Origin: Minisyncoccota bacterium
GTDB lineage: Bacteria > Patescibacteriota > Minisyncoccia > Phycocordibacterales > UBA9973
NCBI GenBank assembly: GCA_035353995.1
Contig: DAOQAL010000001.1
Span: forward strand, 145,464 to 209,463
DNA length: 64,000 nucleotides
Direction: 5' to 3'
The notes under the pieces: generated by a model
Seen by the model: the letters and a program-made list of their open reading frames with translations, nothing else
Told to the model about the DNA's origin: nothing
Database searches by the model: none
Shown here: piece by piece, positions 3,322-55,401 of the stretch
How positions within the stretch are numbered: the stretch's first letter is position 1
How the letters are laid out: each line of letters begins with the position of its first letter
Program-made: the position numbers and the translations under genes

Positions 3322-3507
3322 ATGTCAAAGTCAAGCGAGTATTTTCAAGATATTAAGTCAGAGCTAAAACACGTTAATTGGCCTACTAAAAAACAAACAA
3401 TTGCTTATACAGTAATTGTAATTGTGCTTTCTATTTTAGTAGCATACTTCTTGGGACTATTTGATTTCATTTTCTCAACAGGTTTGGGAAAAATTATTTC
3501 ATTTTAA
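3322..3507 (+). CDS. secE: Preprotein translocase subunit SecE
   Basis: 61 aa, single C-terminal TM, position immediately upstream of nusG. Confidence 0.75.
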   Translation: MSKSSEYFQDIKSELKHVNWPTKKQTIAYTVIVIVLSILVAYFLGLFDFIFSTGLGKIISF

Positions 3508-3517
3508 TTTTTAATTT

Positions 3518-4063
3518 ATGTCAAAACAAGAAATACAAGGGGTAAGGAATTGGTATGCAATTCATACTTATGCCGGATATGAAAATGCGGTTCTTCGTAA
3601 TTTAAAGCAAAGAATAGATTCTCTTGGTATGAATGATAAAATTTTTAATGTCATTGTTCCAGTAGAAAAGAAAATAAAAATAAAAGCAGGTAAGAGAGTT
3701 GAAGTAGAAGAGAAAATTTACCCAGGATATGTTTTAGTAGATATGATTGTAACAGATGATTCTTGGTATGTTGTTAGAAATACACCAAGAGTAACAGGAT
3801 TTGTTGGGGCAGGAGTAAATCCAGTACCTTTGAAAAAAGATGAAGTAGATTATCTATTTAAGAAAATGGATACAAGTACAGTTAAACATAAAATGGATAT
3901 TGCAATTGGTGAGACGATAAGAATTGTTGATGGACCATTTAAAGATCTTGAGGGAAAAGTAAATTCACTAGATCAGGAGCGTGGAAAAATAAAGGTTCTT
4001 GTCTCTATGTTTGGTCGTGAGACACCAGTAGAATTAGATTTCTTGCAAGTTAAAAAAATATAA
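3518..4063 (+). CDS. nusG: Transcription termination/antitermination factor NusG
   Basis: NGN domain (WYAIHTYAGYE) and C-terminal KOW (GETIRIVDGPFKDLEGKV). Confidence 0.85.
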   Translation: MSKQEIQGVRNWYAIHTYAGYENAVLRNLKQRIDSLGMNDKIFNVIVPVEKKIKIKAGKRVEVEEKIYPGYVLVDMIVTDDSWYVVRNTPRVTGFVGAGVNPVPLKKDEVDYLFKKMDTSTVKHKMDIAIGETIRIVDGPFKDLEGKVNSLDQERGKIKVLVSMFGRETPVELDFLQVKKI

Positions 4064-4077
4064 GTTAATGTAAAAAT

Positions 4078-4503
4078 ATGGCAAAGAAAATAACAAAAAA
4101 AATTAAATTACAAATTCAGGCAGCTAAAGCAACACCAGCACCACCACTTGGTCCGGCTCTTGGACAGGCAGGTATAAACATTGGTGATTTCGTAACAAAA
4201 TTCAATGCTGCTACTCAAAAAATGGCAGGAGATAAGGTTGGAGTAGTAGTTTCAGTTTATGATGATAGATCTTATGATTTCGTAATTAAGACTCCACCAA
4301 TTACTGGTTTGATTCTTAAAGCAGCTGGAATAGAGAAAGGCTCAGGGAAGAATGCAACTCACAAAGTCGGAAAAATTACGAAAGCTCAGGCTTTAGAAAT
4401 TGCTAAGAAGAAAATGCAAGACTTGAATTCAAAAGATGATGCAGGAGCAATAAATATAGTAGCAGGCTCTGCTCGTTCCATGGGTATTGAAGTTAAAGAC
4501 TAA
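4078..4503 (+). CDS. rplK: 50S ribosomal protein L11
   Basis: [35 protein letters not shown]. Confidence 0.9.
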
Positions 4504-4510
4504 TAAAAAA

Positions 4511-4539
4511 AGACCAGCGAAAGCTGGTCTTTTGTTTTT
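4511..4539 (+). terminator. Intrinsic terminator directly after rplK
   Basis: 8-bp perfect stem AGACCAGC-gaaa-GCTGGTCT followed by TTTGTTTTT. Confidence 0.7.
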
Positions 4540-4558
4540 AGCAAGGTATAATCTTAGT

Positions 4559-5080
4559 ATGAAAAAACAAAACAAAATAATAAAAAAAGAAGAAGTAAAA
4601 AAATATAAAAGGCCGTCTTGGGATGAATATTTTATTGATATTATGCACGCTGTTGGTGAAAGGGGAACATGTGACAGGGGAAGAGTTGGTTCTGTAATAG
4701 TAAAAGAAAAAAGATTGATTTCTGCTGGGTATGTTGGTGCTCCAGCAAAATGTAAAAGTTGTGACGAGATTGGTCATGAGATGCATACAGTTACTCAGGA
4801 AGATGGAACACAATCACGACACTGCATTAGGACTGCTCACGCTGAAACAAATGCCATTATTCAGGCGGCACGTTTTGGAATTAGTACAGAAGGTGCGACT
4901 TTATATTGTATGATGACTCCTTGCTATGCTTGTGCAAAAAATATAATCAATGCTGGTATTTCCAGAGTTGTTTCCGAAAAAGATTATCACGCAGGGAAAA
5001 GAAGTAAAGAGATTTTTAAAGAAGCAAAAGTAAAATACGAATTATTAAACGATATTTTAGTTAAATATAAAGATCAATAA
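4559..5080 (+). CDS. dCMP deaminase (cytidine/deoxycytidylate deaminase family)
   Basis: HAETNAI zinc-ligand motif and PCYACAKNII; ATG at 4559 chosen because the ORF-track N-terminal extension spans the rplK terminator. Confidence 0.8.
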   Translation: MKKQNKIIKKEEVKKYKRPSWDEYFIDIMHAVGERGTCDRGRVGSVIVKEKRLISAGYVGAPAKCKSCDEIGHEMHTVTQEDGTQSRHCIRTAHAETNAIIQAARFGISTEGATLYCMMTPCYACAKNIINAGISRVVSEKDYHAGKRSKEIFKEAKVKYELLNDILVKYKDQ

Positions 5081-5081
5081 T

Positions 5082-5633
5082 ATGTCTAAGATAATTATCG
5101 GTTTAGTGGGTTCATTGGCTAGCGGGAAAGAGACTATAAAAAAATATTTAGTGGAAAAAAATAATGCAAAAGATTGCAAATTTTCTTCTATTTTGAGAGA
5201 TGTTTTAAATAGGTTATCTGTGCCAATAAGTAGAGAAAATTTGCAGAAAGTTTCTACCGTTTTGCGTGAAAATTTTGGTGAGGATTTACTTGCTAGTGCT
5301 ATTGCTACTGATGCATCCAAATTGGATGCTGATATCGTTGTTATAGATGGTGTCAGAAGATTTACAGATATTGAACACTTAAAAGATTTACCAAATTTCG
5401 TTTTAGTAAAAATAGATGCTGATCCAAAATTGAGATATGAGAGAATGAAATTGAGAAACGAAAACGTAGGAGATGATAAAAAAACTTTTGAAGAATTTAT
5501 GAAAGATCACGAAGCAGAAGCAGATAAACAAATTCCTGAAGTTATGAAAACAGCAAAATATGAAATCATAAATAATGGCTCTTTTGAAGATTTATATAAG
5601 CAATTAGATGAGCTAATTGCTAAGCTTTCTTAG
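5082..5633 (+). CDS. P-loop nucleotide/nucleoside kinase-like protein (possibly dNMP kinase or dephospho-CoA kinase-like)
   Basis: Walker A GLVGSLASGKET at N-terminus; ~180 aa; sits in nucleotide-metabolism cluster. Confidence 0.45.
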   Translation: MSKIIIGLVGSLASGKETIKKYLVEKNNAKDCKFSSILRDVLNRLSVPISRENLQKVSTVLRENFGEDLLASAIATDASKLDADIVVIDGVRRFTDIEHLKDLPNFVLVKIDADPKLRYERMKLRNENVGDDKKTFEEFMKDHEAEADKQIPEVMKTAKYEIINNGSFEDLYKQLDELIAKLS

Positions 5634-6150
5634 TATATTCAACGAATTCTAAATCGTATTTATTTAAATCGTCTTTTGAATATTTTTGACTGGTAGTTTT
5701 TTGCCAGATATTTTCGTCTATTTCGGGAAAGAATATTTCAGCATCTGGAAATTCTGCATCAACGTGCGTTATATAAAGTTTGTCTGCTTTTTCTATCATA
5801 ATTCTATATATAGAGCCACCACCAATGACAAAAACTTCTTCGTTTTCTTGTGTTGTGTTTTTCAATAAATCTAAAAGTTCATCTATTGAATGAACTATTT
5901 CTGCGCCTTCTATTTTTAAATTAGAATCTTGGGAAATTATTATATTTCTTCTATTTGGCAAAAGTCTGCCAATCTGTTTTCCAGAAGTGTCTTTGCCCAA
6001 AGATTCAAAAGTTTTTTGCCCCATAATTACTGTATGTCCAGAAGTTGTTTCTTTGAAGTGTTTCATATCTGCAGGTAAATTCCAAAGAAGATCATTCTTT
6101 TTTCCGATTTCGTTATTTTTACCAATTGCTGAAATTATTGAGATAATCAT
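5620..6150 (-). CDS. folA: Dihydrofolate reductase
   Basis: MIISIISAIGKNNEIGKKNDLLWNLPADMKHFKETTSGHTVIMGQKTFESLG ... VIGGGSIY. Confidence 0.85.
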   Translation of the reverse strand: MIISIISAIGKNNEIGKKNDLLWNLPADMKHFKETTSGHTVIMGQKTFESLGKDTSGKQIGRLLPNRRNIIISQDSNLKIEGAEIVHSIDELLDLLKNTTQENEEVFVIGGGSIYRIMIEKADKLYITHVDAEFPDAEIFFPEIDENIWQKTTSQKYSKDDLNKYDLEFVEYTKKA

Positions 6151-7045: not shown

Positions 7046-7072
7046 AAAACCACCCGAAGGTGGTTTTTTTAT
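7046..7072. terminator. Hairpin/T-tract between thyA start and rpmB end (likely rpmB terminator, bidirectional-looking)
   Basis: AACCACC-cgaa-GGTGGTT followed by T7 on + strand; A/T-rich on - strand. Confidence 0.45.
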
Positions 7073-7419: not shown

Positions 7420-8040
7420 ATGGACGCAACCAATGCAATATTTTATATAGCTATATTAATAATGTCTGTCGTAATTCATGAAGTTTCGCATGGATTTATG
7501 GCACGACATTTTGGAGATCAAACAGCATACCTTGCTGGCAGACTTACGCTAAATCCTTTTAGGCATTTAGATTTATTCGGCTCTGTCTTATTGCCTGCAA
7601 TTCTTGTATTAACAAATTCTCCTTTTTTAATTGGTTGGGCAAAACCAGTACCATACAATCCTAATAATTTTAAAAATAAAAAAATGGGTACCATAGCTGT
7701 AGCGGCAGCGGGAGTATTGGCAAATTTATTTATAGCAGTTTTTTTTGGTTTAATTTTACGTTTTTCTGTTGGATTAAATGCACCAGAGGGTTTTTATTTG
7801 ATTATTTCTTCAATTGTAATTGTTAATCTTGCATTGGCAATATTTAATCTAGTTCCTATTCCACCACTTGATGGCTCAAAAATTCTTTTTAACCTACTAC
7901 CACCTTCTTTTTATAATGCTATAGCAGTAATTGAAAGATACTCCCTTGTATTTATAATCATATTTTTAGTATTTTTATCTAATTATTTAGTGCCTGTTTT
8001 AACATTTCTTTATAAGGTTATTACAGGTTTTTCTTTGTAA
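7420..8040 (+). CDS. Site-2 protease family (peptidase M50) integral membrane metalloprotease
   Basis: HEVSHG (HExxH) in TM1 region and downstream LDG motif (PPLDGSKIL); multiple TM segments. Confidence 0.7.
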   Translation: MDATNAIFYIAILIMSVVIHEVSHGFMARHFGDQTAYLAGRLTLNPFRHLDLFGSVLLPAILVLTNSPFLIGWAKPVPYNPNNFKNKKMGTIAVAAAGVLANLFIAVFFGLILRFSVGLNAPEGFYLIISSIVIVNLALAIFNLVPIPPLDGSKILFNLLPPSFYNAIAVIERYSLVFIIIFLVFLSNYLVPVLTFLYKVITGFSL

Positions 8041-8111
8041 CATTTATAGCTTGTAGTTTATACACATGTTTCGTTGTTTTACAAAAAACTACTGTATAAT
8101 TATATATGTAA

Positions 8112-10673
8112 ATGGACACTTTAAATTTTTTAAAAATTAAGTGGCACAAGATTACTTCTATCGTTTTATTGATTCTGCTTTTTGGTGCTTATGTAAATAT
8201 TTTTGCGATAGATCAAACTTATGATCCTGGTGAAACATTGGATCCAGAATGTGTGCCTGGTGAAGTAAATTGCACAGTAGAAATTCCTGTTTCACAATGG
8301 ACGACAAATGGAAGCAATATTTATTACGACTTAGGTAATGTTGGAATTGGAACAACTTTACCAAATCAACAATTAGAAATTACTCAAAACTTTAGACTTC
8401 CTTCTACAACTTACAATAGTGGAAATCCTTATGGAATAATTTACAAAGGAACAAATCCATTCATCCATGATTTCAATTATGGAAACAACGGTACTGTAAC
8501 GACAAGAGGACGCAATTTATTTATTGGTGAGAGTGCTGGTAACTTTACAATGGGGTCAACGGCAAATTACAGTAATAATTCTTCCAATAATATTGGAATA
8601 GGATTTCGCTCTTTGTATTCTAATACCACAGGATCTGAGAACTCTGCAGTAGGAAATTCTGCTCTTTATTTAAATACCACAGGAAGCGGTAACTCTGCAG
8701 TAGGAAATTCTGCTCTTTATTTTAATACAACAGGATCCACTAATTCTGCAATAGGAGATTATACTCTTTATTTAAATACCACAGGAAGCGGTAACTCTGC
8801 ATTAGGATCTGCTGCTCTTTATAGTAATACTGAAGGAAATTTTAACTCTGCAGTAGGATCTTTTGCTCTCTCTCGTAATACTATAGGAATTTATAACTCT
8901 GCAATTGGAAATAGAGCTGGTAGTTCTGTTGGTAATGGAGATAATCCAGGTATTGCCAGTAGTTACGGTGTATACATCGGTGCGTATGCCAAAGCTTTTG
9001 CCGATGGTGGTCAAAATGAAATTGTAATTGGTTATGATGCTACAGGTAACGGAAGTAATACAGCAACAATTGGAAACAGTTCTATATTAAGAACATATTT
9101 AAGAGGAGTAAATTTAGCAGGAGGTACAGCAACAGCAGGAACTGCTCCACTTAAATTTGTATCAGGAACATTACTTACAACTCCCGAGGCAGGCGCGATG
9201 GAATTTAATGGAACTAATTTATTTTTTACTCCTTCTTCTTCAAGAAAAAAAATTTCTTTTATAGAAGATCTTCCAATTACAATAGTTAATTCTTCAAGTC
9301 TTTTTTCAACAGGATTGTCTGGAACTGGTAGTGGAACAACAGCAGGGTATTCTATTTTTTTGGGAGTTGACGCAGGAGGTAGTGCTACTGGTGCAACATA
9401 CTCTAATTTTCTAGGTAATGGTGCTGGACTTAATGCAACTTCAGCAACAGCTTCAAATTTTTTCGGTTATTATGCTGGAGAAACAGCCACAGCAGCTAAT
9501 CATTCTAATTTCTTTGGCACTGAAGCTGGATACAGAGCTACTGGTGCACATTACTCAAATTTCTTTGGTAGTTATGCTGGCGAGTTCGCAGTAAATGCTA
9601 TTGAATCAAATTTTTTCGGTACTTCTGCTGGAGATTCTGCAGAAAATGCATCTCATTCAAATTTTATAGGCGATAATGCTGGAAATTATGCTTTAAATTC
9701 ATCACATTCAAACTTTTTTGGTACAGCTGCTGGTTACGCTGCTGAGAATGCATCAAATTCAATTTTTATAGGGTATAAGGCTGGAGAAAATGATACTGTC
9801 AACAATACTACAAATGCTAGTTATTATTCTATTCTTATAGGTCCAAGTACTAGCACTGATGGAAATGAAAATAGTATTGCATTGGGTGGTAGCGCAAAAA
9901 ATACAGCATCAAATCAATTTGTTATTGGTTCTGCTACAAGTCCGATAGATACAACTGTTATATATGGATCTGGCGGTACAATATGTACTATTACAACTGG
10001 AACGGGAATTGGTTGTTCTTCAGATGAGAATTTAAAAACAAATATTGTTGATTTAGATACGAACACTTTGGAAAAATTAACACAAGTAAGAACTGTAACT
10101 TTTAATTGGAAAAATCGAAATACTACTTCAAATAATATTGGATTTATTGCACAAGATTTAGAAAAATATTTTCCAGAATTAGTAAATACAGATCCAACTG
10201 GTTATAAATCAGTTTATTATGCAAACATAACTCCTATTTTAACTGAAGCTATAAGAGAACTTGATTTAAAAGTAAAAGAATTTTCTTCTATTGATGTTTC
10301 TAATGAAAATTCTTTTGCATCTTTAATTAAAAAATATTTGGCTGATGTTGCAAATGGTATTGAAATAGTTTTCTTTGGAGAAGTTCATACAAAACAATTG
10401 TGTATTGATGATGTTTGTATAAATAAAGATCAACTACAACAATTATTAGATAGTTCTAATATTACTAATACAATTACAAGCACTGTTACAGATACAGATA
10501 CAACAGAAAATACAAATTTGGAAAATGCTGACGATGCGGATAGTGATGAACCTGTAATAGATTCAGATATAGATTCTGAAAATATAGAAGAACAAGTAGT
10601 AGAAGAACAACAAAATAATGTAATTGAAGATGTAAATCCAAGTTTAGGTGCTGAACCAGTAGTAGAAGAATAG
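8112..10673 (+). CDS. Large secreted tail-fibre-like protein: Gly/Asn/Ser-rich beta-helical repeats plus intramolecular-chaperone (peptidase S74-like) domain and acidic C-terminal tail
   Basis: N-terminal TM/signal. Repeated NSAxGNSALYxNTTGS units. Motif SSDENLKTNI...TFNWKN...IGFIAQDLEKYFPELV typical of phage tail-fibre / endosialidase C-terminal chaperone domains. D/E-rich tail. Confidence 0.6.
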   Translation: MDTLNFLKIKWHKITSIVLLILLFGAYVNIFAIDQTYDPGETLDPECVPGEVNCTVEIPVSQWTTNGSNIYYDLGNVGIGTTLPNQQLEITQNFRLPSTTYNSGNPYGIIYKGTNPFIHDFNYGNNGTVTTRGRNLFIGESAGNFTMGSTANYSNNSSNNIGIGFRSLYSNTTGSENSAVGNSALYLNTTGSGNSAVGNSALYFNTTGSTNSAIGDYTLYLNTTGSGNSALGSAALYSNTEGNFNSAVGSFALSRNTIGIYNSAIGNRAGSSVGNGDNPGIASSYGVYIGAYAKAFADGGQNEIVIGYDATGNGSNTATIGNSSILRTYLRGVNLAGGTATAGTAPLKFVSGTLLTTPEAGAMEFNGTNLFFTPSSSRKKISFIEDLPITIVNSSSLFSTGLSGTGSGTTAGYSIFLGVDAGGSATGATYSNFLGNGAGLNATSATASNFFGYYAGETATAANHSNFFGTEAGYRATGAHYSNFFGSYAGEFAVNAIESNFFGTSAGDSAENASHSNFIGDNAGNYALNSSHSNFFGTAAGYAAENASNSIFIGYKAGENDTVNNTTNASYYSILIGPSTSTDGNENSIALGGSAKNTASNQFVIGSATSPIDTTVIYGSGGTICTITTGTGIGCSSDENLKTNIVDLDTNTLEKLTQVRTVTFNWKNRNTTSNNIGFIAQDLEKYFPELVNTDPTGYKSVYYANITPILTEAIRELDLKVKEFSSIDVSNENSFASLIKKYLADVANGIEIVFFGEVHTKQLCIDDVCINKDQLQQLLDSSNITNTITSTVTDTDTTENTNLENADDADSDEPVIDSDIDSENIEEQVVEEQQNNVIEDVNPSLGAEPVVEE
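8621..8880 (+). repeat. Tandem ~60-bp coding repeats inside tail-fibre-like gene
   Basis: Near-identical nucleotide units (...aactctgcagtaggaaattctgctctttatttaaataccacaggaagcggt...) repeated about 4 times. Confidence 0.6.
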
Positions 10674-10699
10674 TAAATTAATTTTTAGTATATATTGAA

Positions 10700-12451
10700 A
10701 TGACTAAAACTTTCAAAAAGTTTTTAAAATATATTTTTGTTTTTATATTTTTTAGTATTCCTTTTACATTTCTTTTTGCTTCCGAGACAGATGGGACAAT
10801 AAATTCTATAAACCATAGTGCACTTCTTTGTGAAAATTATACATGCACTACAACTACACAAATTAATTTTTTGACTAGTCGTGGTCAAGCAGTACAGGTA
10901 ACTGATACAAAACTAACTGGTCATATTTGGTCTGAAAAAACAGGATGGATTAATTTAAACTCATCTAATGGTGGAGTTACAAATACAGAAGATGGAACTC
11001 TTGGTGGTTATGCTTGGGGAGAAAATACGGGATGGATAAATTTTAATCCAACAAATGGTGGTGTAACTATAAATAATTCTGGCAAATTTGTTGGGTGGGC
11101 TTGGGCACAAAATTACGGGTGGATTAAGTTTAATTGTAGCGTTGCAAATGCTTGTGTAGAAACAGATTGGCGCCCCATTGGTGCTCGTGATGGTGGTAGT
11201 AGTGGTAGTACAGGAGGTGGCACAACTGGAGGAGAAGGAGAAACACCAACTCCAACACCAAATCCTACGCCAATACCAGAAGAACCAGTAGAAATACCAA
11301 TTAACCCTTTACCTGTAGAATTACCTGTAGAGCCAGAAAATGTTCCAATTCAAATAGATGAGGAGACTAATGATGTTGAAACTGAATCAAATAATACACA
11401 AATACAAAATATTTTAGATGAAGGTGCTAATTTTTTAGATGACATTTTTCTAATTTTACAAACAGCAATAAATACAATATTTAATATATTTAGTACACCA
11501 ATAGGAAGTATTGTTTCAAAAACACTAGCTACTATCGGTGTTGTAACTGGATTTTACTTTAGTCTTATATCAATGTTCACAAACCCACTTTCATTTTCTG
11601 AATTAATATTAATACCTATGCGATTGTGGAGTTTATTGTTGGTTGCTTTTGGTGTTAAGAAACGCAATCGTCCTTGGGGAACAGTCTACGATAGTGTTAC
11701 AAAACAACCCCTTGATCCTGCATATGTTGTTCTTCAAGATTTAAATGGAAATGAAATTGCTACATCCATTACAGACTTGGATGGTCGTTATGGTTTTCTT
11801 GTTCCTGCTGGCCAATATAGAATTGTTGCCAATAAAACAAATTATGAATTTCCTTCAAAAAAAATGGCTGGTAAATCAAGTGATGAATTATATCAAGAAT
11901 TATATTTCAATGAAGTTATAAATGTTAATGAAGATGGGGAAGTTATTTCAAAAAATATACCAATGGATCCGATTAAGTTTGATTGGAATGAATTTGCTAA
12001 AAGAGATCAAAATGTTATGAGATTTTTTTCAAAGCGAGAAATTTGGATTGCTCGTGCTTCAAATACTTTATTTATTTTAGGTTTTTTGTTTTCTATAATT
12101 GCTACGATAATTTCTCCTAATGTATACAACATAATAATTATTTGTACTTATGCATTGTTATTCATACTGAAGAAAACAATTTTGAAGCATAAAGTGCTTG
12201 GCTGGATAAGACAAAAGGAAACAAAAAATCCACTTTCGTTTGCAATAATGAGAGTATTTTTTGCTGATAGTGGAAATGAAGTTATACATAAAGTTACTGA
12301 TAAAACAGGAAAATATTACTGTCTAATACCAAATGGAAGGTATTACGCCAAGATAGAAAATAAAAATCTTGATGAAAGATATAGTCTTGTTTATACTTCA
12401 GAACCTATAGAGGTCAAAAAAGGTTATATAAATAAAAAATTTGAAGTTTAA
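10700..12451 (+). CDS. Secreted/membrane protein with three W-rich GWINFN-type repeats, Pro/Thr-rich linker, TM helices and two carboxypeptidase-regulatory-like beta-sandwich domains
   Basis: Signal peptide. Repeats TGWINLNSSNGGVT / TGWINFNPTNGGVT / YGWIKFNCS. Linker TPTPTPNPTPIPEEPVEIP. CarbopepD_reg-like segments (DLDGRYGF..AGQYRI; TDKTGKYYCLIPNGRYYAKI). Confidence 0.5.
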   Translation: MTKTFKKFLKYIFVFIFFSIPFTFLFASETDGTINSINHSALLCENYTCTTTTQINFLTSRGQAVQVTDTKLTGHIWSEKTGWINLNSSNGGVTNTEDGTLGGYAWGENTGWINFNPTNGGVTINNSGKFVGWAWAQNYGWIKFNCSVANACVETDWRPIGARDGGSSGSTGGGTTGGEGETPTPTPNPTPIPEEPVEIPINPLPVELPVEPENVPIQIDEETNDVETESNNTQIQNILDEGANFLDDIFLILQTAINTIFNIFSTPIGSIVSKTLATIGVVTGFYFSLISMFTNPLSFSELILIPMRLWSLLLVAFGVKKRNRPWGTVYDSVTKQPLDPAYVVLQDLNGNEIATSITDLDGRYGFLVPAGQYRIVANKTNYEFPSKKMAGKSSDELYQELYFNEVINVNEDGEVISKNIPMDPIKFDWNEFAKRDQNVMRFFSKREIWIARASNTLFILGFLFSIIATIISPNVYNIIIICTYALLFILKKTILKHKVLGWIRQKETKNPLSFAIMRVFFADSGNEVIHKVTDKTGKYYCLIPNGRYYAKIENKNLDERYSLVYTSEPIEVKKGYINKKFEV

Positions 12452-13923: not shown

Positions 13924-14292
13924 ATGTCTCCTTATTATAAGGGAATGAAAGTAAATTTACTTGGTTTTCCGGTTAGCAATTCTAATAAAAGCGACCGTGT
14001 AAAAAAGAATGGAAGAAAGAGAAAATTTTATCATCTTTCTTTTTCGTCTCCTTTTCCAGAAAATGCACCGAAGAATTTGCTTTTAGTCTATGATATTCCA
14101 GAACTAATGAAAAAAGAGCGAGATTGGTTTCGCCGACAACTTATTAGTTTTGGTTTTGTGATGATTCAGAAAAGTGTCTGGGTAGGGCCATCACCTTTGC
14201 CGAAAGAATTTCTTAATTATTTGAAATTGATAAAAAAAGGGGACAACTTTAAGACTTTTAAATTAGCGAAAGGGTACGAAACTAAAAAATAA
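13924..14292 (+). CDS. Small protein with Cas2/VapD-like motif pattern and ~50-aa basic N-terminal extension
   Basis: Segment LLLVYDIPELMKKERDWFRRQLISFGFVMIQKSVWVG...FKTFKL parallels Cas2 beta1 (LVxYD[IV]) -helix- (GxRxQxSV[FW]) - C-terminal strand pattern; assignment is by motif only. Confidence 0.4.
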   Translation: MSPYYKGMKVNLLGFPVSNSNKSDRVKKNGRKRKFYHLSFSSPFPENAPKNLLLVYDIPELMKKERDWFRRQLISFGFVMIQKSVWVGPSPLPKEFLNYLKLIKKGDNFKTFKLAKGYETKK

Positions 14293-34378: not shown

Positions 34379-37144
34379 ATGGAAGGATTGTTTTCAAAGG
34401 AAATTCCGAAATTTAAAACTCCAGAGGAAGAGTTAAGCTTTTTGCGTGCTCATATTGAAAAAAGAGAAAGAGAATTAAAGGCAAATGGTCAAATTGAACA
34501 CTCTACTGAAAATGTTGCAAAGAATGTTATTTTAGAATATAAAGAAGCACCTGCTAATGAAATTATTCATAAAGATAATTTATTAAGCAAAAGAGATACA
34601 CAAGAAATTGTTTTAAAATTGAAACCAGAAACTCATGATGCTGTTATGGAAGAGTTGCTTGGTGTTGTAATAACAAAAGGAATTAAAAATGCTTTAGAAA
34701 TTGTTAGTTCAATGAACAATCCTCACGTTGATGATGATTTTCAAAGATTACTTGTTCAATACTTAAAGACAGGACAAATAATATCAGGATTGAAAGAGGG
34801 GTCTCCTTTGTATAGAGAATTAAATATGACACTGTTTGAAATAACATTGCCACCACCTATAGATGAAGCTGATAAGCAAAAAAGTTTTAAAGAATTTATT
34901 AGCGCAATGGAACAATTTTATGCTGGTATGCAATCTATTTCTGTAAGTGTTAATAATGAAAGGGAAGAATACTTTTCTCTTGAAGTAGCATTGTCGAGCG
35001 AAAGTGACCAAGTTGTTATATATGCAGCAATACCAAATAAACACATTTCTCTTTTTGAAAAACAAGTTCTTGCATTTTATCATGATGCAAAAATAAAAGA
35101 AGTTCCTGACGATTACAATATTTTTAATGAAAAAGGTTATTCTGTTGGAGCTTATGCCACTTTTGCTGAACGTGCCGTTTTGCCAATTAAAACATACGAT
35201 AGTATAGAACATGACCCAATGAATATGATACTTAATGCTTTTTCTAAGTTAAAGACTAATGGCGAAGGAGCAGCAATACAAATTTTGATTGCTCCAGCTG
35301 GTAATAAATTTATAAATGAATTTCATAAAATATTAGATGATGTTAAAGATGGAATATCGGTAAAACATGCTGATGATAATCTTTATAAATTCAATAAAGC
35401 TTTTTTGAAAGCATCAAAAGAACTTTTGTTTAATACTGAAAAGAAAACAGAAGAGAAAAAAGAAAAATATATGAAGGGAAGACGTGCCGTAGATGAAGGT
35501 GCTGTTGAAAAAATTGGCAACAAATTGAAAAGTTCTATTTTAAAAGCAAATATAAGAATAGTTGCTTCAGGTGAGAATAAGGAAAGAGCAGAAGCAATAT
35601 TGCGAGAATTAGAATCTTCTTTTAATCAATTCACAGAAGCTGCAAGTAATAGAATTTTTTTCGAACAAATTTCTGGAAATGAATTAAAAAAACTATTTCA
35701 TGATTTTTCCTACAGAGCTTTTTCCCATGATAAAATTTTGCCAATGAATCTAAAAGAGTTATCTTCTGTTTTTCATTTTCCAGTTGGAATTTCTGGTCAG
35801 GCTCAACTAAAAGAAGCAAAAGCTGGAATTTCTCCAGCACCTATTGATATGTCACAAGATGGTATCGTTCTTGGAATAAACAGCTATAGGGGACGTGATA
35901 CTATGGTTCGTCTCAATAGGGAAGATAGAATGAGGCATTTTTATGTAATAGGGCAGACTGGTACAGGTAAAACAAATGTAATGTTAAATATGATAACTCA
36001 GGATATTAAAAATGGTGATGGATGTTGTTATATTGACCCTCATGGCACTGATATTCAAACAATATTATCACGTATACCAAAAGAGAGAATCGATGATGTA
36101 ATATATTTTGATCCAGCTTATACTGCGCGTCCAATGGGTTTAAATATGCTTGAATTTGATCCAAAATATCCAGAGCAAAAAACCTTTGTTGTGAATGAAC
36201 TGATGGGAATTTTTAATAAGTTATTCGATATGAAAACATCTGGTGGTCCAATGTTTGAGCAGTATTTTAAAAACTCTGCATTTTTAATTATGGAAGATCC
36301 AGAATCAGGTTGCACATTGCTTGAAATTTCAAGAGTGCTTGCTGATAAACAATTCCGTGATATGAAATTGGCTAAATGTAAGAATCCAATCATAAAACAG
36401 TTTTGGATTTCAGCTGAACAAACAACCGGTGATCAATCCTTGGCTAACTTTGTGCCTTATATAACTTCAAAATTTGATAATTTTATTTCAAATGACATAA
36501 TGCGTCCTGTTGTTTTACAAGAAAAATCTGTGTTTGATTTTCGTAAGATTATGGATGAGAAAAAAATTCTTTTAGTTAACCTTTCGAAAGGACGTTTGGG
36601 AGAAATGAATGCAAATTTAATAGGACTTGTTCTTGTTGGAAAAATTCAAATGGCAGCATTATCAAGAGTAGATATGTTTGGAAAACAAATGAATGATTTT
36701 TATCTTTATATTGATGAATTCCAGAATGTTACAACTGATTCCATAGCATCAATTCTTTCTGAAGCACGAAAATATCGTCTTTCTCTAAATGTTGCTCATC
36801 AATATATCTCTCAGTTAGAAGAATCAATTAAAAATGCAGTATTCGGTAACGTAGGTTCAATGGCTGTCTTTCGTGTAAGTTCTGAAGATGCTGAATTTTT
36901 AGAAAAAAGATTTCAACCAACATTTAAATCAGCTGATATTATGAAGTTGGATAATTACAATGCTTATGTAAGTATGTTAGTAAAAGGCCAGCCAACAAAG
37001 CCTTTTAATATTTATACTCTTCCACCAGAAAAAGGTAATCCAGAAATAGTAGAGAGTTTGAAAGAACTTTCTTACTTAAAATACGGTCGCGATAGGGAAG
37101 AAATAGAATCCGAAATTATGCACAAATACGAGAGACAACAATAA
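34379..37144 (+). CDS. VirD4/TraG-like (type IV coupling-protein-like) P-loop ATPase with ~490-aa N-terminal region of unknown function
   Basis: Walker A GQTGTGKT followed by YIDPHGTD (DPxGE-like). Walker B LYIDEFQNV. C-terminal ARKYRLSLNVAHQYISQL resembling the TraG/TraD C-terminal region. Confidence 0.55.
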   Translation: MEGLFSKEIPKFKTPEEELSFLRAHIEKRERELKANGQIEHSTENVAKNVILEYKEAPANEIIHKDNLLSKRDTQEIVLKLKPETHDAVMEELLGVVITKGIKNALEIVSSMNNPHVDDDFQRLLVQYLKTGQIISGLKEGSPLYRELNMTLFEITLPPPIDEADKQKSFKEFISAMEQFYAGMQSISVSVNNEREEYFSLEVALSSESDQVVIYAAIPNKHISLFEKQVLAFYHDAKIKEVPDDYNIFNEKGYSVGAYATFAERAVLPIKTYDSIEHDPMNMILNAFSKLKTNGEGAAIQILIAPAGNKFINEFHKILDDVKDGISVKHADDNLYKFNKAFLKASKELLFNTEKKTEEKKEKYMKGRRAVDEGAVEKIGNKLKSSILKANIRIVASGENKERAEAILRELESSFNQFTEAASNRIFFEQISGNELKKLFHDFSYRAFSHDKILPMNLKELSSVFHFPVGISGQAQLKEAKAGISPAPIDMSQDGIVLGINSYRGRDTMVRLNREDRMRHFYVIGQTGTGKTNVMLNMITQDIKNGDGCCYIDPHGTDIQTILSRIPKERIDDVIYFDPAYTARPMGLNMLEFDPKYPEQKTFVVNELMGIFNKLFDMKTSGGPMFEQYFKNSAFLIMEDPESGCTLLEISRVLADKQFRDMKLAKCKNPIIKQFWISAEQTTGDQSLANFVPYITSKFDNFISNDIMRPVVLQEKSVFDFRKIMDEKKILLVNLSKGRLGEMNANLIGLVLVGKIQMAALSRVDMFGKQMNDFYLYIDEFQNVTTDSIASILSEARKYRLSLNVAHQYISQLEESIKNAVFGNVGSMAVFRVSSEDAEFLEKRFQPTFKSADIMKLDNYNAYVSMLVKGQPTKPFNIYTLPPEKGNPEIVESLKELSYLKYGRDREEIESEIMHKYERQQ

Positions 37145-44173: not shown

Positions 44174-44574
44174 GGGGGTGCAAGGCATAGACAGAGAGCC
44201 TTTTGCACTTAATGCATGTCGAGAATAAACGTAATCTCGTAAAACTTCGTTTAAATGTTAATTGCAAAATTGACTTCTAAAGCTTTTGCAAAAGTTTCTC
44301 CATACTTCGGTATGAAGGACTTTGCATTTGCTCCAGCTTTCGCGTAAGCGCAGGTTGGTGTCTTTTTCATAGACTTCCGATATATGAAAAAAGGCATAAT
44401 ATTATCGGGATAGGGGAAAGAACGTCTTGATCTTTTTTCCAAAACTAAAAGAATCGATTTAGAAATATTTTGTTTATTTAAGAATTTTTAAATCTAAAAC
44501 AAAAAATAAACTAAACATGTAGATTTTTTGGCAGAAACTTTTTGCACGGGGGTTCAATTCCCCCCACTTCCACA
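44174..44574 (+). ncRNA. ssrA: tmRNA (ssrA)
   Basis: 5' GGGGGUG pairs with 3' CACUUCC (two G-U pairs) + A discriminator. T-arm GGGGGUUCAAUUCCCCC. In-frame tag ORF ending ...GMKDFAFAPAFA-TAA. Immediately downstream of smpB. Confidence 0.8.
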
Positions 44575-44587
44575 ATCTTACTAATCA

Positions 44588-47831: not shown

Positions 47832-47905
47832 CCGTCCTTAGCTCAGCTGGTTAGAGCACGGAGCTTATACCTCCGGGGTCCTAGGTTCGAATCCTAGAGG
47901 ACGGA
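47832..47905 (+). tRNA. tRNA-Ile, anticodon UAU (reads AUA)
   Basis: Cloverleaf CCGTCCT/AGGACGG acceptor, anticodon arm CGGAG-CTTATAC-CTCCG, T-arm CTAGG-TTCGAAT-CCTAG, discriminator A; CCA not encoded. Confidence 0.75.
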
Positions 47906-47978
47906 CAAGGATAATTTTTCCATAAAATTGGAAAATAGATTTTTGAATTAGAAAGAATTGAAGAAGAATAATAATTCT

Positions 47979-54952: not shown

Positions 54953-55053
54953 GAATCTATTATAACACTTTTAAGTTTACCTATCACTTTCTATAAAAAC
55001 ATATTACATAGGCAAGATATATGTAATGGTGAAAGCCATCACTTTCGCGAATG

Positions 55054-55142
55054 CGGAGACGGCGGGATTCGAACCCGCGAAGGGTTTTGAAGCCCTTGCC
55101 TCTTTAGCAAAGAGGTACGTTAGACCACTCTGACACGTCTCC
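55054..55142 (-). tRNA. tRNA-Ser (GCU), class II with long variable arm
   Basis: Reverse complement: acceptor GGAGACG/CGTCTCC, anticodon arm CCTCT-TTGCTAA-AGAGG, long variable stem-loop, T-arm CGGGTTCGAATCCCG, discriminator G. Confidence 0.8.
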
Positions 55143-55224: not shown

Positions 55225-55311
55225 GGAGGCGTGGATGAGTGGCTTAAATCAGCGGTTTACTAAACCGCCGTCCCTTAATCGGGACCGTGAGTTCGAATCT
55301 CACCGCCTCCG
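55225..55311 (+). tRNA. Class II (long variable arm) tRNA with apparent ACU anticodon (Ser-like identity, G73)
   Basis: Acceptor GGAGGCG/CGCCTCC, anticodon arm GCGGT-TTACTAA-ACCGC, variable arm GTCCC-ttaatc-GGGAC, T-arm GTGAG-TTCGAAT-CTCAC. Confidence 0.6.
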
Positions 55312-55401
55312 CAGAGTCGTGATAGCACAAGATGCTTAGTTCAAAAAGGTTTTAATTTATAAAATTAAAACCTTAAAATTTAGATAATAATCTGATATAC
55401 T

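Follow-up and report, generated by a model that had tools for sequence, protein, structure and literature searches.

Could a chromosomal relative of phage tail fibres serve a bacterium of the candidate phyla radiation (CPR) for holding on to other cells? For the Paceibacteria, most of which have not been cultivated, little is known of the way in which partner cells are recognised and held. The question is raised by two adjacent genes in a stretch of 64,000 nucleotides (nt) from a Minisyncoccota bacterium (assembly GCA_035353995.1, contig DAOQAL010000001.1, positions 145,464 to 209,463 of the forward strand), hereafter called the window. These co-oriented open reading frames (ORFs), which we refer to as A (853 amino acids, aa) and B (583 aa), are separated by 26 nt between the stop codon of A and the start of B. 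A preliminary description of this DNA had delimited both ORFs correctly and had called their products giant surface proteins, a word that their lengths do not justify. It had also placed them in a CPR organism, in agreement with NCBI, where the identical sequences, encoded on a 421-kb contig of a metagenome-assembled genome, are assigned to Candidatus Paceibacterota as a 'tail fiber domain-containing protein' (A) and a 'carboxypeptidase-like regulatory domain-containing protein' (B). These generic names, and the well-known domain families behind them, are what was already known. As detailed below, A is probably an exported, self-processing trimeric fibre. That this fibre docks on B for adhesion, the two genes forming a chromosomal surface module rather than a prophage, is a reading that we hold about as readily as we doubt it, while the role of B as functional partner or anchor of A is a tentative assignment, plausible without being probable. 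The analysis establishes the domains of the two proteins, the catalytic residues and fold of A, the termini particular to its subfamily and the linkage of the genes; from these we infer that A is exported, trimerises, is cleaved, docks to B and serves adhesion.

The reading of A as a self-processing fibre is founded on a domain of the phage-type intramolecular chaperone/autoprocessing (ICA) class, which profile, catalytic dyad and fold all identified (Table 1). In line with the preliminary description, A matched the Pfam family Peptidase_S74 (PF13884), with an E-value of 1.5e-16 and 60.8 bits against a cut-off of 22 for residues 637-691. Ser637 and Lys642 were among only ten invariant columns in an alignment of 30 homologous sequences. 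The same i/i+5 spacing is found in the dyads of endoNF (S911/K916), MyRF (S587/K592) and T5 pb1 (S1264/K1269), all of which are cut just N-terminal to the serine (PMC8326128, PMC4690869). By analogy, the predicted cleavage site of A lies between S636 and S637, and in this chaperone family a trimer is needed for cleavage (PMC8326128). The structure of A was predicted as an AlphaFold2 monomer with a mean predicted local distance difference test (pLDDT) score of 62.5, rising to 75-87 across aa 650-725. In this model, the domain showed the alpha/beta fold of ICA domains, ending in a long helix (aa 703-725, pLDDT 75-87). The best Foldseek matches in the PDB were the MyRF ICA domain 7dc3 (E 2e-3, probability 1.0, TM-score to the target 0.64), endoNF 3gw6 and GA-1 3gud, the E-values for this fold being modest and the query a monomer model. 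Among the predicted viral structures of BFVD, 185 matches were obtained at E<1e-3, many of them annotated as ICA-domain or tail-fibre proteins, and tail-fibre families of PHROGs matched A as well. By sequence, full-length A retrieved nothing from the PDB and its C-terminal 228 aa gave a weak match to the tail fibre 8jov (E 0.0014).

Behind this domain A continues to an extent that had been put at about 170 residues and judged atypical, given that such domains normally end their proteins. The figure had to be corrected to about 128 aa, because the Pfam S74 model is short, spanning only the first 58 residues of A's chaperone domain, while phage profiles and viral ORFs end around aa 725 (the C-termini of the PHROG profiles fall at aa 723-728 of A). 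Among 62 chaperone-bearing ORFs from IMG/VR contigs, most matches stopped near position 100 of a chaperone C-terminal model of 164 positions, with 1-20 residues left, and none of the 62 carried the post-chaperone extension. The excess and its acidic tail are real and indeed atypical of phages, but they are not atypical in general, being the norm in A's own cellular subfamily. In close homologues of A, the lengths from chaperone to C-terminus fell into two modes of ~110-150 aa and ~200-270 aa, the longer one comprising the majority. The extension matched no Pfam family even at E-values up to 10. Its terminal tail is variable in homologues (40-110 aa), and in A residues 790-853 comprise 34% Asp/Glu and no Lys or Arg at all. 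When aa 726-800 were searched exhaustively against 1.84 billion cluster representatives, 293 proteins were returned. In the best 145 of these 293, the module was located near the C-terminus and came after the chaperone core at a median distance of 4 aa, and 144 of the 145 contained the CxnC motif. An independent sorting module was considered and rejected, since the extension hardly ever occurs other than immediately after the chaperone in the same protein.

At the opposite end of A, the preliminary description had proposed a signal sequence or transmembrane (TM) anchor. The hydrophobic N-terminus was borne out by the model (helix at aa 8-30), whereas the anchor was not. Indeed, the 30-sequence alignment gave a family consensus consisting of a signal peptide that ends in AxA, followed by PGxxYxPGxTLDPxCxPGxxNC (in A, IFA followed by IDQTYDPGETLDPECVPGEVNC). 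This AxA consensus in front of the mature N-terminus speaks against a TM anchor and for a signal peptide that is cleaved off. On the evidence of its sequence and those of its relatives, A can best be understood as a putatively Sec-exported fibre that would lose its signal peptide and have no membrane anchor of its own. The N-terminal Cys motif was present in 29 of 39 extended-type proteins, in two of 43 short-type cellular proteins and in none of 45 viral ones. Together with the other cysteines of A it makes up three local pairs (47/54, 625/635 and 764/769), an arrangement that fits what would be expected of an extracytoplasmic protein. The N-terminal part of A matched no Pfam family, even at E-values up to 10. 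Between the two ends, the tandem repeats of the type NSAxGNSALYxNTTGS were found as described earlier, with the difference that their period is 51 bp (17 aa) instead of ~60 bp and that they form two blocks. The monomer model shows regular 17-residue beta repeats upstream of the chaperone, with a strand every 17 residues in block 1 (pLDDT ~80) and strands from aa 415 to 551 in block 2 (pLDDT up to 94).

Both repeat blocks and the chaperone of A align with a 423-aa protein from the tail module of a Methanosarcinales virus, and this alignment supports the homology of A with genuine virion tail fibres over both blocks and the chaperone. The viral protein (L216:5752-7023; BK063672.1, a member of the Caudoviricetes with an assigned Methanosarcinales host) covers aa 163-722 of A at ~35% identity, is built with the 17-aa repeats seen in A and has its C-terminus 9 aa past the chaperone. 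A belongs to a cellular subfamily, defined here, of presumably self-processing phage-type fibres, which is marked by the N-terminal Cys motif and by the Cys-hairpin and acidic tail behind the chaperone, modules that are absent from the viral homologues examined. If A is a domesticated phage module, as suggested in the preliminary description, the domestication is not a recent one, as the subfamily is large and cellular, has its own export signal and carries at its two ends modules that are missing from viruses. Some genomes contain several A-type genes, with three on one 324-kb contig as an example. We found no description of S74 fibres in Patescibacteria/CPR, of the two terminal modules or of the link between A and B in the literature, the coverage of which was incomplete, so that this is absence of evidence only.

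Comparison with known systems helps to define what is particular about A. Phage fibres and tailspikes with a C-terminal chaperone, such as K1F endoNF, T5 pb1 and GA-1 gp12, share with A the HMM (hidden Markov model) match, the i/i+5 Ser-Lys dyad, the fold and the repeat-rich stalk upstream, and some virion fibres even carry the same 17-aa repeats. In contrast to these fibres, A is encoded by a cellular chromosome, begins with a Sec signal peptide in place of a tail-attachment domain, and adds the N-terminal Cys motif and ~128 post-chaperone residues; signal peptide, motif and extension were all unseen in the 45-62 viral homologues examined. The best structural match of A (7dc3) belongs to the MYRF/MrfA family of eukaryotic membrane-bound transcription factors, and in MYRF, too, the ICA domain is not C-terminal and its cleavage separates two functional parts (PMC8326128). 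What comes after the ICA domain of MYRF is a TM anchor with a luminal part, whereas in A it is a soluble Cys-hairpin and a disordered acidic tail, which would be extracytoplasmic. Alongside eukaryotic MYRF, A would represent an adaptation of the phage intramolecular chaperone, in this case to Sec-dependent extracellular assembly. Trimeric autotransporter adhesins with YadA-like heads resemble A in their short Gly/Asn/Ser-rich repeats and predicted regular beta-roll. Moreover, some homologues of A carry or are labelled with the Pfam family YadA_head, and the BFVD matches include 'YadA-like head' proteins. The classification of A as a trimeric autotransporter was rejected, as A itself has neither a YadA_head match nor a beta-barrel anchor and ends in the S74 domain plus extension; its trimerisation would be driven by the S74 domain, unlike that of YadA-like adhesins. 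As a CPR bacterium, the organism presumably lacks an outer membrane, and the YadA head repeat is 14 aa long, compared to 17 aa in A. Finally, S74-terminated fibres are used by cells outside virions as tail fibres of extracellular contractile injection systems and tailocins (PMC12923769). A differs from these in its predicted Sec export and in the absence of contractile-injection or tail genes around it.

Protein B is composed, in this order, of a signal peptide, a Trp-repeat ectodomain, a linker and two successive units of a TM hairpin and a beta-sandwich. The three W-rich repeats, the TPTP-containing, Pro-rich linker and the TM helices had all been noted before. The repeats (GWINLN, GWINFN and GWIKFN) recur with a period of 29 aa in an ectodomain that was modelled as all-beta with a pLDDT of ~95 and in which 38 of 135 positions are invariant. 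This domain matched no Pfam family even at E-values up to 10 and a profile search of the PDB was empty, while a search for its relatives gave 1384 matches from many phyla. The matched proteins were unannotated and for the most part small, and came from Planctomycetota, Anaerolineales, Deltaproteobacteria and other groups. The Trp-repeat domain appears to be a widespread uncharacterised domain. The linker varies in length among homologues, some of which have VWA or other inserts, and the helix-breaking NPLSFSE turn between TM1 and TM2 (aa 295-301, positions 11582-11602) is invariant in the family. Two CarboxypepD_reg-like domains had been proposed for B. The first of them, which contains many invariant residues, matched the family (PF13620) with an E-value of 1.9e-11 and 44.6 bits against a cut-off of 32.3; the second was sub-threshold in Pfam on its own (E 0.087, 13.6 bits) and is recognisable by its homology to the first (BLASTP, 30% identity, E 3e-9). 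Since the two sandwiches are homologous, B can be described as an internal duplication of a TM hairpin plus beta-sandwich behind a variable ectodomain. Foldseek related the sandwiches to SdrD-B, CnaB2, carboxypeptidase D and transthyretin-like structures. B thus shares fold and Pfam family with the CnaB, SdrD-B and transthyretin-like stalk proteins of Gram-positive bacteria; in contrast to those, each of its sandwiches follows a TM hairpin with a K/R-rich flank, it has no LPXTG signal and its Trp-repeat domain is without a characterised relative. B is not strictly single-copy. Indeed, some genomes contain two paralogues, in near-tandem or on separate contigs (L081:1-1392 and 3369-5864; L051 and L072; L067 and L073). 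The window contained no second copy of either A or B.

The evidence that links the two proteins comes from gene order. A pattern scan of one genome per species (185,579 species) identified relatives of B in 431 genomes, from which 80 loci were taken with 10-kb flanks. Three further loci were added, and the resulting 83 B loci were analysed by our own ORF calling and a chaperone HMM. A chaperone-domain gene was located directly 5' of B on the same strand in ~19 of the 83 loci and directly 3' of it in ~8 more; considering the species-representative loci only, such a gene was directly beside B in 24 of 80 (30%). Of all 34 chaperone-domain genes in the 83 loci, 27 adjoined B, while 6.5 +- 2.2 were expected from random placement inside the same loci, and none of 10,000 permutations reached 27. 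In the reverse test, which started from metagenome contigs encoding close relatives of A's C-terminus, B was adjacent to seven of the ~23 extended-type genes with enough flank and to none of the more than 100 short-type or viral genes. The linkage between A and B is therefore supported across species well beyond chance, and B can be regarded as a conserved Paceibacteria membrane protein that is genetically linked to A's subfamily of fibres.

In the mechanism that we propose, the Sec signal peptide would take A out of the cell, where the C-terminal ICA domain would align three chains and nucleate folding of the stalk of 17-residue repeats upstream of it. A folding nucleus at the C-terminal end would suit Sec export, as this end exits the translocon last. 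The Ser637-Lys642 dyad would sever A at the predicted site and shed a fragment of 217 aa, comprising chaperone, Cys-hairpin module and acidic tail, and the remaining mature fibre would have ~600 residues per chain, with the region right before the cut as its distal tip. Because mature A would have no anchor and yet possesses a conserved, non-viral N-terminal Cys motif, we propose that a surface partner to which it docks retains it on the cell. B, a conserved polytopic membrane protein that would present its disulfide-bonded Trp-repeat domain on a Pro-rich stalk, is the best candidate for this partner, and the docked fibre could mediate adhesion to cells or surfaces; attachment to a host, as put forward in the preliminary description, is something that we can only infer. 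A more elaborate version, which we consider unlikely as a whole, pictures a phage-derived attachment organelle in which B provides the membrane base, a Pro-rich stalk through the wall and a Trp-repeat head, into which trimeric A and its paralogues from elsewhere in the genome would plug via their N-terminal Cys motif; chaperone, Cys-hairpin and acidic tail would be a shed extracellular pro-domain that times assembly after Sec passage, and the variable stalk of 17-aa repeats would, with the tip, determine which host or surface is bound. As a candidate surface-attachment module, A and B are concrete targets for metaproteomics, cryo-electron tomography and heterologous expression.

Several observations weigh against a dedicated fibre-and-anchor pair. 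In around two thirds of the B loci, a fibre gene is missing from the 10 kb on either side, and ~70% of the extended-type fibre genes are not beside B, so that the partnership would be facultative or non-specific. Furthermore, an unrelated Ig-like/Fn3 giant fills the slot in front of B in five loci (L024, L032, L036, L039 and L046), which would fit a hot spot for surface genes equally well. Adhesion by A is argued by analogy with phage fibres and YadA-like adhesins. The trimeric stalk is deduced from the chaperone domain alone, the model being that of a monomer, and the repeat region had no significant Foldseek match in the PDB. Lastly, the topology of B is ambiguous. Its hydrophobic segments number two plus two after an exported, disulfide-bearing ectodomain, and this even count would put both sandwiches outside, whereas the K/R-rich flanks all face the beta-sandwiches and the hairpin loops are uncharged. 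The segment count and the positive-inside rule are thus in conflict as to which parts face outwards.

The alternative that fares best, and that we nevertheless consider somewhat unlikely, holds that A and B are functionally independent and that the region between M50 and rpsL, at the head of the str operon, is a favoured and well-expressed insertion site for variable surface-protein genes. The backbone consisting of a ~286-aa ORF, the M50 gene, a slot, B, rpsL and rpsG is conserved and represents the ancestral arrangement, and the slot is empty in many species; together with the giants found in this slot and the location of most extended-type fibre genes elsewhere, this is what such a site would predict. 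It would not predict that the fibre gene flanks B on either side without being tied to M50 or rpsL, nor that the pair stays together in at least four contexts that lack both of these genes (L002/L003, between trmD and gyrA; L066; L075; L076), and the within-locus permutation result stands against it as well. B may be a general partner of several surface proteins, or the site may collect surface-protein genes. The slot giants (L024:3-3638, L032:2-3235, L036:1-9936, L039:2-2635 and L046:2-8593) reach more than 3,300 aa and share the C-terminal end IITPRxNESIVDVIFKNFxxxFNFxxNVK; Bact_surface_Ig-like plus fn3 domains were seen in L024, the one giant checked.

Alternatively, the true partner of B could be the upstream M50 site-2 protease, B being a tethered sensor or substrate that is cut in a TM hairpin and the fibre gene a passenger. 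We regard this as quite unlikely. M50 is located directly 5' of B in 29 of 78 loci and separated from it by nothing but a fibre gene in 10 more (39 of 78), and the invariant helix-breaking NPLSFSE turn is of a kind that site-2 protease substrates presumably share. Gene order is, however, the sole basis of this proposal. M50 proteases are widespread as housekeeping genes, an output domain for signalling or DNA binding could not be recognised in B, and the linkage to the fibre would be left unexplained. Intramembrane processing of B by M50 is possible.

It is also improbable, in our view, that A is a secreted enzyme or antagonistic factor, such as a tailspike-like depolymerase or a freely released fibre, and not an adhesin bound to the cell. 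In favour of this, endosialidase tailspikes were the proteins in which the S74 domain was originally described, the signal peptide of A appears cleavable with no anchor of its own to replace it, and Foldseek gave weak, non-significant similarity to beta-helix tailspikes and lyases. On the other hand, no catalytic domain was found in A by Pfam, NCBIfam or PHROGs, and the uniform 17-aa repeats that make up its body resemble the repeats in fibres and in YadA-type heads. That the pair is a prophage or phage remnant, consisting of a tail-fibre gene plus an accessory gene, is highly improbable and was rejected in spite of the strong homology of A to phage tail fibres, since the prophage genes looked for among the neighbouring genes were absent, the neighbours being housekeeping genes (thyA, rpmB, M50, rpsL, rpsG and fusA) in a chromosomal synteny kept across many species, since A combines a Sec signal peptide with terminal modules missing from viral homologues, and since B has no phage relatives in PHROGs.

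Table 1. Positions of the A-B gene pair, its predicted protein features and the adjacent M50 gene in the window
Feature	Coordinates	Strand	Remarks
M50 (site-2 protease family) membrane peptidase gene, context	7420..8040	+	Pfam Peptidase_M50, E 1.8e-12
ORF A, 853 aa, putatively exported phage-tail-fibre-type protein with predicted self-cleaving chaperone domain	8112..10673	+	
A aa 1-32, predicted signal peptide (K-rich n-region, hydrophobic core, IFA before ID)	8112..8207	+	model helix 8-30 and family consensus; cleavage predicted
A aa 37-54, N-terminal Cys motif YDPGETLDPECVPGEVNC (C47, C54)	8220..8273	+	L43, P45 nearly invariant
A aa 161-279, repeat block 1, ~7 units of 17 aa (NSAvGnsALYlNTTGsg), 51-bp DNA period	8592..8948	+	TRF (Tandem Repeats Finder) period 51 at 8616-8909
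A aa 415-567, repeat block 2, ~9 units of 17 aa (SNFFGxxAGxxAxxAxx)	9354..9812	+	TRF period 51 at 9555-9767
A aa 637-725, phage-type intramolecular chaperone/autoprocessing (Peptidase_S74) domain	10020..10286	+	
A Ser637 codon	10020..10022	+	
A Lys642 codon	10035..10037	+	
A aa 726-790, subfamily-specific extension, invariant C764 and C769 (helix plus small beta unit)	10287..10481	+	C-terminal alignment A3, model
A aa 791-853, acidic low-complexity disordered tail	10482..10670	+	pLDDT <40
ORF B, 583 aa, conserved Paceibacteria membrane protein	10700..12451	+	
B aa 28-162, Trp-repeat ectodomain (three 29-aa units G[YW]AWxxNxGWIxF; four conserved Cys)	10781..11185	+	
B aa 163-232, Gly/Pro-rich variable linker (TPTPTPNPTPIPEEP...)	11186..11395	+	pLDDT <50
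B aa 275-320, TM hairpin 1, conserved NPLSFSE turn, KKRNR flank	11522..11659	+	hydropathy segments 275-294, 297-320
B aa 327-424, beta-sandwich 1 (CarboxypepD_reg / CnaB / transthyretin-like)	11678..11971	+	most conserved part of B
B aa 450-496, TM hairpin 2	12047..12187	+	hydropathy 450-496; model helices 445-471, 475-495
B aa 501-583, beta-sandwich 2, paralogue of sandwich 1	12200..12448	+	model pLDDT >90

The window is chromosomal, with a guanine-plus-cytosine (GC) content of ~31%. The A-B pair is placed between the M50 protease gene and rpsL; on its 5' side it is preceded by genes for dihydrofolate reductase (DHFR), thymidylate synthase (thyA), ribosomal protein L28 (rpmB) and the M50 peptidase, and on its 3' side it is followed by rpsL, rpsG, fusA and then a long ribosomal-protein operon. 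As not a single terminator-like site was detected on the + strand between positions 7069 and 13503, M50, A, B, rpsL and rpsG may be co-transcribed, although this is weak evidence. Promoter-like sites were no more frequent in the window than in shuffled sequence, and the sequence TGTATAAT at positions 8093-8100, 5' of A, carries little weight in a genome of such low GC content.

A small ORF between rpsG and fusA (13924-14292, +) encodes a PaaX_M/Cas2-like domain (E 9e-13), and a PaaX_M protein is also encoded close to the A-B pair in locus L002. Further downstream, surrounded by housekeeping genes, a 921-aa protein (34379-37144, +) showed weak matches to TrwB/TraG-type coupling proteins and HerA-like ATPases. 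The window also contains a transfer-messenger RNA (tmRNA) gene (44174-44575, +; Rfam 131 bits) with the long predicted tag AKLTSKAFAKVSPYFGMKDFAFAPAFA, and a tRNA-Ile gene with a UAU anticodon immediately 3' of ftsH (47832-47906, +). Two divergent tRNA-Ser genes were found at 55225-55312 (+) and 55053-55142 (-), one of them with the usual GCU anticodon and the other with an unusual ACU anticodon (A34) in the loop UUACUAA (Rfam tRNA, 54 bits).

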